A DNA stretch of 64,000 nucleotides from Hyphomicrobiaceae bacterium (GTDB taxonomy: Bacteria > Pseudomonadota > Alphaproteobacteria > Rhizobiales > Hyphomicrobiaceae), in the NCBI GenBank assembly GCA_033764645.1, contig JANRIT010000081.1, positions 4,942 to 68,941 on the forward strand. Reading direction: 5' to 3'. How positions within the stretch are numbered: position 1 is the stretch's first letter; each line of letters opens with the position of its first letter. This document shows positions 22,880 through 24,361 of this stretch, one piece after another. Made by a program: the position numbers and the translations under genes. The notes under the pieces are model-generated. The model saw only the letters and a program-made list of their open reading frames with translations. It did no database searches and had not been told where the DNA came from.

Positions 22880-24361
22880 TCAACCCTTGGTGATCTTTTC
22901 CACCCCGCCCATATACCCCCTTAGTGCCTCCGGTATGACGATCGAGCCATCGGCCTCTTGGTAGTTCTCCATGACCGCGATGAGCGTGCGGCCGACGGCA
23001 AGACCGGAGCCGTTCAGCGTGTGGACGTAACGCACGTCCTTGTCGCCGGCGCGATAGCGCGCGCCCATGCGGCGGGCCTGGAAGTCGCCGCACACCGAGC
23101 AGGACGAAATCTCGCGATAGGTGTTCTGGCCCGGCAGCCACGCTTCGATGTCGTAGGTCTTCTGACTGGCGAAGCCCATGTCGCCGGTGCACAGCAGCAT
23201 GGTGCGATAGGGCAGCCCGAGCCGCTGCAGCACCTTCTCGGCGCTCGCCGTCATGCGCTCGTGCTCGTCGCCCGAGGTTTCCGGCGTGGTGATCGAGACG
23301 AGTTCCACCTTCGAGAACTGGTGCTGGCGGATCATGCCGCGTGTATCGCGCCCGGCGGCACCGGCCTCCGAGCGGAAGCACGGCGTCCACGCGGTCATGC
23401 GCATGGGGAGTTGGTCCGGGCTGAGGGTCGTCTCGCGGACGATATTGGTCAGCGAGACCTCGGCGGTCGGGATGAGCCAGTAGTTCTGGCCCGATAACAA
23501 CCCATCAAGTTGGGCATGGATCTCCATTGGCAGCAACTTTTTTGCATTGGCAATGCCAATTCTCGCTTCATTGTAGTCAAAATCAAGTAGAGGAACGACG
23601 ATATCGAACCAAACCGAAACACCGTAACTGTCCGCTACATCCGGATATTTCCTCATTAATTCCTGAATCTCATTTGATTTAGGCGCAGTGCCGCTAACGC
23701 TGAACAGATCGTCTTTGAACTTCGGCAGGTTGCCGGTGCCGTAGGCGGCGTGGTCGCGCACGAGGTAGGGCGGCACGAACTCGGTGTAGCCGTTCTCGCT
23801 GGTGTGCAGGTCGAGCATGAGCATGGCGATGGCCCGCTCGAGCCGGGCAAGCGCGCCTTTCAGGAACACGAAGCGGGCGCCGGAGACCTTCTGCGCCGTC
23901 TCGAAATCCATGAGGCCGAGCGCCTCGCCGAGTTCGAAGTGCTGCCTGGGAGCGAAGTCGAACGTGCGTGGCTCACCCCAGCGGCGGACCTCGACGTTGC
24001 CGGTCTCATCGGCGCCGTCCGGCACGTCGGGGCGCGGCAGATTGGGGATGACGGCGAGCGCCTCCTCGATGGCGCGGTCGAGGCGGCGCTTCTCCTCCTC
24101 GCCGGCGGTGATCGTGGCCTTCAGCTCGGCGACCTCGGCCTTGAGCGCGTCGGCCTTGGCGGGGTCCTTGGCGGCCATGGCCTTGCCGACCTCCTTGGAG
24201 GCGGCGTTGCGGCGCGCCTGCGCCTCTTGCAGCGTGGTCAGCAGGCGGCGGCGCGCCTCGTCGAGGGCGACAAGCTCGGCTGCACGCGGCGGCAGGCCGC
24301 GGCGCTGCAGGGCCTGATCGAAGGCTTCCGGGTTGTCGCGGATCCACTTGATGTCGTGCAC
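22880..24361 (-). CDS. serS: seryl-tRNA synthetase carrying a ~70-aa in-frame insertion
   Basis: GTG 24361 ([14 protein letters not shown]..., canonical SerS N-terminus, GAGG upstream). Class II motifs present ([42 protein letters not shown]). The upstream 257 codons of track ORF 22880..25132 overlap tatC and are not part of the gene. Confidence 0.9.

Follow-up and report, generated by a model that had tools for sequence, protein, structure and literature searches.

A low-G+C, in-frame segment of a Hyphomicrobiaceae seryl-tRNA synthetase gene is probably one allele of a pool of exchangeable accessory modules

The serS gene in a 64,000-nucleotide stretch of contig JANRIT010000081.1 from a Hyphomicrobiaceae bacterium (assembly GCA_033764645.1; the whole stretch is hereafter called the window) carries an in-frame insertion of 74 codons whose base composition departs sharply from that of the rest of the gene. 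Our analysis suggests that this segment is probably a translated, selectively kept accessory helical module, one allele of a pool that is swapped by recombination. A preliminary description of this DNA had read the segment as a recently acquired insertion domain. It is no one-off: loops of 26-96 residues, mutually unrelated in many cases, occupy the same site in 108 of 309 proteobacterial SerS proteins. The features concerned are as follows.

22880-24361, minus strand: serS (493 amino acids plus stop, GTG start), from the translation of the open reading frame (ORF) and from Pfam and PDB matches.
23480-23701, minus strand: inserted module, residues S221-Y294 (74 codons), from alignments, the open frame and the G+C content of third codon positions (GC3).
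23702-23722, minus strand: upstream conserved flank, K214-F220 (KFKDDLF), from the codon alignment.
23459-23479, minus strand: downstream conserved flank, W295-E301 (WLIPTAE), the TAE strand of the catalytic core, from the alignment and the codon view.
23462-23745, no strand: low-G+C island, the sole stretch of the 64 kb with 120-nucleotide windows below 50% G+C.
23546-23560, no strand: palindrome ATTGGCA-A-TGCCAAT (7+1+7 nucleotides), which encodes part of IGIANA, from the sequence.

The product of the gene is a bacterial type-1 seryl-tRNA synthetase (SerS, also SerRS). It matches Seryl_tRNA_N (PF02403, 5e-29) and tRNA-synt_2b (PF00587, 5e-42) in Pfam, and the motifs LIPTAE, FRSEAG and GSGLAVGR are invariant in the SerS alignment. 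SerRS structures in the PDB match it in two collinear blocks (E = 1e-138), and the Klebsiella enzyme (6h9x) has 8 residues opposite residues ~222-290 of the window protein. An identical protein is recorded from a Hyphomicrobiaceae metagenome-assembled genome (MAG; MDX2259685.1). Among the 120 best SerS relatives, which formed the tree and alignment sample, the three nearest are 83-90% identical and all lack the insert; P0002 is the sister sequence (92% core identity), and P0003 and P0004 are outgroups. The loop between DLF and LIPTAE comprises 75 residues in the window (S221-Y294 plus W295) versus 7 (QTTNGFW) in each of these three, a net gain of 68 residues over the closest orthologues. The insertion of about 75 residues before WLIPTAEV, first described from the letters of this collinear SerS, was thereby confirmed, and the alignment with insert-less orthologues defined its boundaries as S221 and Y294.

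The composition of the segment was also as first described. The earlier count of 78 G+C in the 188 nucleotides at 23493-23680 (41%) is exact, and the value for 23493-23700 is 92/208 (44%). Over the 64 kb, 120-nucleotide windows have a mean G+C of 0.69 (sd 0.052) and a minimum of 0.40, which is the serS island. GC3 drops to 0.49 in the insert from 0.90 over the remainder of serS (Fisher p = 5e-15), with total GC of 0.45 versus 0.68, GC1 of 0.53 versus 0.67 and GC2 of 0.34 versus 0.46. Codon usage differs accordingly, in that AAA:AAG is 3:1 in the insert and 2:16 elsewhere in the gene, while GTT (four codons) and TTA (two) occur in the insert and nowhere else in serS. No stop codon interrupts the SerS frame across the insert, versus 2-7 in each of the five other frames, and only 0.8% of shuffles of the insert were stop-free. 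The upstream flank is altered as well: codons 216-217 (23711-23716) are AAA GAC in the window and GCC GAG in insert-less relatives, and variable residues in KF-x-x-DLF were seen in insert-bearing alleles only. The palindrome noted earlier is present at 23546-23560. At the equivalent codons, the only homologous insert that we found (in L082, see below) reads AAG GCA ATC GAG TTA GCC, which is non-palindromic; because it is not conserved there, the palindrome is probably fortuitous.

Two further samples were compared, namely 72 serS genes with their genomic loci (the window and 71 of the 80 fetched from GTDB species representatives) and the pooled set of 309 proteobacterial SerS, in which insert families were defined by BLASTP. 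The 108 long loops of the pooled set formed 20 families and 41 singletons. About two thirds of the sampled relatives had no insert at all, and ~30 of the 120 best relatives had inserts of varied length and sequence at the same position. In the 72 genes, the loop had 7 residues in most Alphaproteobacteria and 9-22 in various other groups; loops of 26-96 residues were found in many Hyphomicrobiales, in Hyphomonas, Devosia, Xanthobacter, Afipia and a Rhizobium isolate, and also in a Lysobacteraceae, a Gallionella and a Thiobacillus. Every insert of at least 26 residues that was found is stop-free and in frame, and none of the 51 inserts tested matched a Pfam or PHROG family. The loop is thus a permissive site that holds many mutually unrelated modules. 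We found no paper describing swappable modules in the SerS loop in the literature searched.

These data also bear on whether the segment is an assembly chimera or a sequencing artefact, a concern that arises since the window comes from a MAG and the change in composition is abrupt. The segment is in frame and free of stops, a homologous insert of equal length occupies the site in an independent assembly (GCA_019751875.1), and the isolate genomes of Xanthobacter sp. VTT E-85239 (L026) and Rhizobium sp. 32-5/1 (L027) carry long inserts there too. We regard an artefact as barely conceivable, and the earlier suggestion of a chimera can be dropped.

Comparison of inserts with the cores that carry them showed both descent and replacement. 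Homologous inserts keep their length (75/75, 64/64, 73/73 and 79/79 residues), and in 88 homologous pairs insert identity rises with core identity (rho = 0.87), with inserts diverging 2-5 times faster than cores. An interim reading, in which inserts did not diverge gradually, was overturned by this deeper sampling. At the same time, unrelated inserts sit in cores of 90-94% identity (P0073/P0110, L002/P0109, L001/P0026 and P0055/P0059); P0140 and P0150 share 97% insert identity with a core identity of only 83%, and the opposite discordance, core identity of 0.92 with insert identity of 0.48, was also found. Gradual divergence and replacement therefore both occur. Separately, one insert family with the ending ...APTREDYW (52-53 residues, 26-44% identity) occurs in a Caulobacteraceae MAG (L014), a Hyphomicrobiales MAG (L011), Rhizobium sp. 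32-5/1 and a Pseudomonadota MAG (L030), records that are assigned to different orders and whose cores are only 55-60% identical. This suggests an old cassette transfer, whole-gene transfer or mis-binning.

Exchange could be followed at nucleotide resolution in a trio of JGI metagenome contigs, of which L084 carries a 66-residue insert (GC3 0.44 versus 0.90) and L085 and L086 carry none. Over 1.0-1.6 kb upstream the three contigs differ by 0-1 mismatch, and 0.7 kb downstream is free of mismatches; of the 44 mismatches between L084 and L085, 42 fall in a 1.07-kb tract spanning the insert (p = 9e-32). At sites next to the insert, L084 alone departs from the state that L085, L086 and the ~7% diverged outgroup L087 have in common, so the L084 insert is a gain. 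It lies on a short recombination patch, with a 39-nucleotide 5' flank and a ~50-nucleotide 3' flank that are 11-13% diverged. No transposase or integrase was found among the neighbouring genes. Cassette exchange through flanking homology is thus indicated by unrelated alternatives at the site and by co-transferred flank markers in the absence of a mobility gene, the latter seen in the relative L084 and not in the window's own lineage. As a separate observation, positions 4669-5739 of L084, from the 3' half of serS to the start of surE, are the only part in which the three contigs differ by 2.6-3.6%; mosaic patterns run through it, with a sharp boundary ~39 nucleotides upstream of the insert site. 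This 3' stretch is locally hot for recombination or polymorphism and rich in imported variation.

For the window itself the argument is one of parsimony. Because P0002, P0003 and P0004 all lack the insert, parsimony favours a gain in the window lineage, and differences between the window and L081 are confined to the insert and the two adjacent upstream codons. Judged from these sequences, the most likely time of gain is after the window lineage had parted from its insert-less sister, and the most likely route is recombination. A fixed, lineage-specific insertion domain, homologous throughout a clade, was rejected, since the sister and the outgroups lack it and the sole homologue (P0005) sits in a distant branch. 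That homologue, P0005/L082, is from Hyphomicrobium sp. GCA_019751875.1, an independent assembly of another, high-G+C Hyphomicrobium lineage; its insert aligns without gaps over the same length (75/75) at 40% identity, and synonymous sites between the two are saturated, which indicates that the insert family is old. Of the recent acquisition proposed at the outset, gain in this lineage is therefore favoured, and a recent origin of the insert family is not.

Many unrelated alleles at one site, presence or absence between near-identical strains, the discordant histories of cassette and core and the local excess of imported variation in the otherwise identical trio would also be expected if the loop were a variable interface, diversified under frequency-dependent selection by an antagonist that docks on SerS, for instance a phage protein or a toxin; genes resembling toxin-antitoxin (TA) or defence genes adjoin serS in several relatives. 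However, neutral turnover at a permissive site could give equal diversity, most strains have no insert, and the two pairs analysed below show no positive selection (dN/dS ~0.1). To our knowledge, no SerS antagonist acting at this loop has been described. We consider this explanation unlikely.

Selection on the inserts was estimated by the Nei-Gojobori method as the ratio of nonsynonymous to synonymous substitutions per site (dN/dS) in two pairs of homologous inserts.

L088/L089: insert dN/dS 0.117, core 0.072; insert dS 0.91, core dS 0.40.
L090/L091: insert dN/dS 0.097, core 0.197; insert dS 1.00, core dS 0.51.

The inserts are under purifying selection, with dN/dS of ~0.1, and no positive selection on them was seen in either pair. 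In clusters at 90% identity, 1 substitution was found in inserts versus 14-64 elsewhere. As purifying selection acts on them, the modules matter at least for folding. Synonymous divergence of the inserts was about twice that of the cores (p = 0.002 and p = 0.026 for the two pairs).

These rates weigh on the possibility that the DNA or RNA is what is selected, with an incidental peptide, for instance as a rare-codon pause that assists folding during translation, an AU-rich RNase E entry site, an internal promoter or a site bound by a nucleoid protein. Otherwise unrelated inserts have only AT-richness in common, the rare codons AAA, TTA, AGA and GTT are concentrated in the insert, and the dip in GC3 reaches 5-10 codons beyond it, into the conserved upstream flank. 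Nevertheless, synonymous sites evolve faster in the inserts than in the flanks, not slower as a selected nucleotide signal would imply, while peptide sequence and length are conserved; about two thirds of the sampled relatives do without an insert, and the palindrome is not kept in the homologue. Nor did the insert contain an RNA family (Rfam, E <= 1), a sigma-70-like promoter, a terminator or a tRNA (ARAGORN), and its RNA fold is no more stable than that of shuffles (z = 0.27). A nucleotide-level function is therefore distinctly unlikely, and the RNA element or internal promoter considered earlier found no support. A self-splicing intron or structured RNA was rejected on the same Rfam and folding results and on the stop-free frame. 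Near the palindrome, TGGCAG..TTGCA was considered as a sigma-54-like site and rejected because its spacing, judged by eye, is 3 nucleotides too long.

Low G+C proved to be a general property of the long inserts. GC3 is below that of the flanks in 27 of the 28 inserts of at least 31 residues, with mean differences (insert minus flank) of -0.24 in GC3 and -0.11 in total G+C (Wilcoxon p = 7e-8 and 1e-7), and the lowest-G+C 120-nucleotide window of the ~7.4-kb locus lies inside the insert at 13 of 27 loci (p = 1e-10). Loops of up to 12 residues show no GC3 deficit, and clade-fixed short loops in Bradyrhizobium (22 residues) and Roseiarcus (28 residues) are normal in GC3. The upstream extension of the dip is seen before long inserts: over codons -10 to -1, GC3 is 0.68 and 0.56 in long-insert genes versus 0.80 and 0.77 in short-loop genes. 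It ends sharply at WLIPT, with GC3 of 0.91 in the first five downstream codons. A CTC ATC CCC motif after long inserts was set aside as a candidate feature: CTC is used in 20 of 32 long-insert versus 1 of 23 short-loop genes, a difference confounded by phylogeny, and insert-less Hyphomicrobiaceae also use CTC at the same place.

Recent import from a low-G+C organism or a mobile element, with a composition not yet ameliorated, was the original reading of such values. The contrast in GC3 (0.49 versus 0.90) and the absence of the insert from the closest relatives agree with it, as do the L084 insert, a demonstrably recent gain that is equally AT-rich, and the lack of a significant tie between insert GC3 and host GC3. 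However, the donor flanks on the L084 patch are ordinary high-G+C serS, only 11-13% diverged, and the sole homologue of the window insert, saturated at synonymous sites, is in a high-G+C Hyphomicrobium. Moreover, the members of the two pairs, at dS of ~0.9-1.0, share their lowered GC3 (0.54/0.54 and 0.64/0.63, versus 0.89-0.91 in cores), with synonymous differences from A or T to G or C (W-to-S) and the reverse (S-to-W) in balance (10:10 and 9:11). Since it is kept over ~1 synonymous substitution per site, the low G+C is no transient foreign signature; it is a stable local equilibrium and probably does not point to a low-G+C donor. Recent import is thus unlikely. Relaxed selection for accuracy was disfavoured as the cause of the low GC3, as inserts are as constrained as cores, and weaker translational selection is unlikely because the insert codons share the mRNA of the core codons and are under equal constraint as protein.

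Database searches gave no sign of a foreign source. With the insert alone, neither a word-indexed protein search nor an exhaustive phmmer search over 1.84 billion representative proteins returned an accepted homologue; one hit, a 5875-residue repeat protein (P0121) in which a short LLDFD..ARIGIG motif matched nine times, was dismissed as chance inflated by repeats. No match to the window insert was found in Pfam (even at E = 10), PHROGs or phage records (tblastn), and motif scans of the JGI metagenomes and IMG/VR found no copy of it.

The fixed insertion site in a conserved essential gene, the sporadic distribution and the co-conversion of adjacent flank markers recall a selfish in-frame element, whether a miniature inverted-repeat transposable element (MITE) of the kind seen in Rickettsia, a degenerate intein, or a homing-type cassette served by an endonuclease in trans. 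Comparison of filled and empty sites showed no target duplication, no terminal inverted repeats lie at the boundaries, and no second copy of the insert was found within the 64 kb by blastn or tblastn, which led us to reject a MITE-like element; the inverted repeat I4 (23446-23454 with 23698-23706) lies off the insert boundaries, and there are no junction repeats otherwise. An intein was rejected because 74 residues fall far short of a HINT domain (at least ~130), because the segment starts at Ser221 and ends in ...SGQNY followed by Trp, and because it is predicted to be all-helical; Pfam, too, gave no match even at E = 10. No endonuclease gene adjoins serS in the window, and the inserts are mutually unrelated, unlike copies of one element. 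A selfish element is thus very unlikely. We also rejected a target of a diversity-generating retroelement, as the 64 kb holds no template repeat and homologous inserts differ by ordinary mixed substitutions, although no search was aimed at reverse transcriptases.

The module is predicted by AlphaFold2 to form helices at 229-238, 240-245, 249-260, 263-274 and 279-290, which lie between strands 220-222 and 294-296. In this model it would make up four or five helices at the tip of a beta-hairpin formed by the DLF strand, the loop and the WLIPTAE strand. The predicted local distance difference test score (pLDDT) was 50-67 for the module when the full-length protein was modelled and 70 when the insert was modelled by itself, and a Foldseek search of the PDB with the insert model gave no match below E = 1. 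The insert-only searches envisaged in the preliminary description have thus yielded predicted helices and neither a family nor a PDB match.

Taken together, these results are best accommodated if the modules are intragenic cassettes that are inherited vertically and also gained, lost and replaced. On this account exchange proceeds by ordinary homologous recombination in the conserved coding flanks (an 11-residue upstream segment and WLIPTAEV), and no mobility gene is involved. As a heterology, a cassette would seldom enter heteroduplex with other alleles; it may thereby escape GC-biased gene conversion, leaving AT-biased mutation to set its composition. We hold this escape, as the cause of the low GC3, with moderate confidence. 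The likeliest role of the module is that of a non-catalytic surface add-on that needs proper folding, and it possibly binds a lineage-specific partner; the diversity and turnover of modules would fit lineage-specific partners or an antagonist. A bolder combination, in which SerS modules are kept diverse by a docking antagonist and, separately, the cassettes show that GC3 of ~0.9 is kept by biased gene conversion and not by codon selection, appears rather unlikely to us.

Several points weigh against the exchange of cassettes as set out here. The trio that bears the patch consists of metagenome assemblies, where strain mixing can make mosaics, and the gain in the window lineage is a parsimony argument on a neighbour-joining tree of 120 sequences with no near-identical pair. 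Translation of the segment into protein is deduced from the sequence, and AlphaFold2 confidence in the module is moderate only. Insert GC3 and host GC3 are not significantly correlated (r = 0.32, p = 0.09), which fits mutational equilibrium and fits a shared foreign pool too, and weak selection for AT-richness, acting on composition alone, would likewise give balanced W-to-S and S-to-W changes. The origin of new cassettes lies outside the explanation.

The surroundings of serS were otherwise ordinary in the window and more varied in relatives. The gene order tatB-tatC-serS-surE-LysM/M23 peptidase is the customary alphaproteobacterial one. The tatB-like ORF (25269-25955) and tatC (24472-25272), both on the minus strand, overlap by 4 nucleotides at 25269-25272, as is customary for this coupled pair. 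As is typical of DNA with 69% G+C, the ORF list of the window contains numerous long, spurious ORFs on either strand. The window's sole Rfam and ARAGORN matches are tRNA-Cys(GCA) at 56170-56243 and tRNA-Asn(GTT) at 59090-59164, both on the plus strand. Among relatives, a gene for a PF05635 '23S rRNA intervening-sequence protein' directly follows serS in L081 (1361-1735), L083 has an NTP_transf_8 gene between tatC and serS and a PcfJ gene beyond surE (1815-2897 and 5789-6931), and both L089 (1-156) and L091 (1-229) have a gene for a HigB-like toxin immediately upstream of serS. The neighbourhood seems to be a landing place for variable small TA-like or defence-like genes.

Two smaller variations were noted in the SerS proteins themselves. 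A second, small indel site lies at alignment columns ~243-247, after LDxHT of motif 1, where P0005, P0026, P0031, P0070, P0086, P0099, P0034 and P0053 have a 5-residue insertion of PAGEN, PANGN or PASGQ type, which occurs with or without the large insert. In P0080 (520 amino acids), the last ~46 residues (HTLNGSG...EKIEVK) resemble a diverged tandem copy of the C-terminal segment before them and represent either a real duplication or an assembly artefact.

The interest of these observations lies mostly in the general phenomenon and less in the single window. They would caution against the use of serS length or indels as phylogenetic markers. The cassettes also provide a rare within-mRNA control on what keeps GC3 high in G+C-rich bacteria: equal constraint on the protein, GC3 of ~0.5-0.6 and a doubled synonymous rate argue against translational selection and for a recombination-dependent force. 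If modules have partners, biology as yet unknown would be acting on an essential enzyme, and were the antagonist explanation true, module turnover would mark an arms-race interface on an essential synthetase.

Vertebrate SerRS carries insertions I and II, which belong to the lineage-specific insertion modules of aminoacyl-tRNA synthetases (PMC4666401). Like these, the SerS module is an extra peptide in a collinear synthetase, tolerated in the aminoacylation domain outside the catalytic motifs and apparently accessory. Unlike the known insertions, which are clade-fixed and homologous, the SerS loop is polymorphic between near-identical strains, recombines and has its own base composition. Inteins likewise lie in frame within essential proteins, next to strongly conserved active-site motifs, and are sporadic, whereas the 74-residue module has no HINT domain and no Cys/Ser...His-Asn|Cys/Ser/Thr termini and, to judge from its sequence, would evidently remain part of the mature enzyme. 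Intervening sequences of 23S rRNA, found in Alphaproteobacteria and elsewhere, are sporadic, hypervariable and AT-shifted, sit at fixed positions and are excised by RNase III; the likeness is by analogy only, as the SerS insert appears to be coding and retained. Rickettsia palindromic elements were reportedly described by Ogata et al. in 2000 as selfish DNA in frame within protein genes, and they are mentioned in PMC1779305 and PMC10969869. There, as here, an in-frame peptide is tolerated at a permissive position of a housekeeping protein in an alphaproteobacterium, but those elements are multicopy, mutually similar, palindromic and present in many genes, whereas the SerS inserts appear to be single-copy, occupy one site in one gene, are unrelated between lineages and have no terminal repeats.

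Closer parallels are found among exchanged genes and hypervariable domains. The minimal mobile elements of Neisseria, reportedly introduced by Saunders and Snyder in 2002, are said to be cassettes between conserved flanks that lack mobility genes. The SerS modules share with them unrelated alternatives between conserved flanks, the absence of transposase or integrase and the co-transfer of flank markers; in contrast to these whole genes placed between genes, the SerS cassette is inside an essential gene, in frame, and its flanks are that gene's own conserved codons. The middle domain of flagellin and the target-recognition domains of HsdS are hypervariable centres, often lower in G+C than the genome, and they too have recombining conserved ends, a replaceable middle and many unrelated alleles. 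For flagellin and HsdS the source of diversifying selection is clear (the environment and DNA specificity, respectively), whereas SerS is a cytoplasmic housekeeping enzyme, and we know of no reason for it to vary. Synthetases serve in textbooks as examples of conserved enzymes with vertical inheritance, yet this SerS loop behaves like flagellin's variable middle. The SerS modules thus behave as exchanged cassettes or hypervariable middles transposed into an essential cytoplasmic enzyme.

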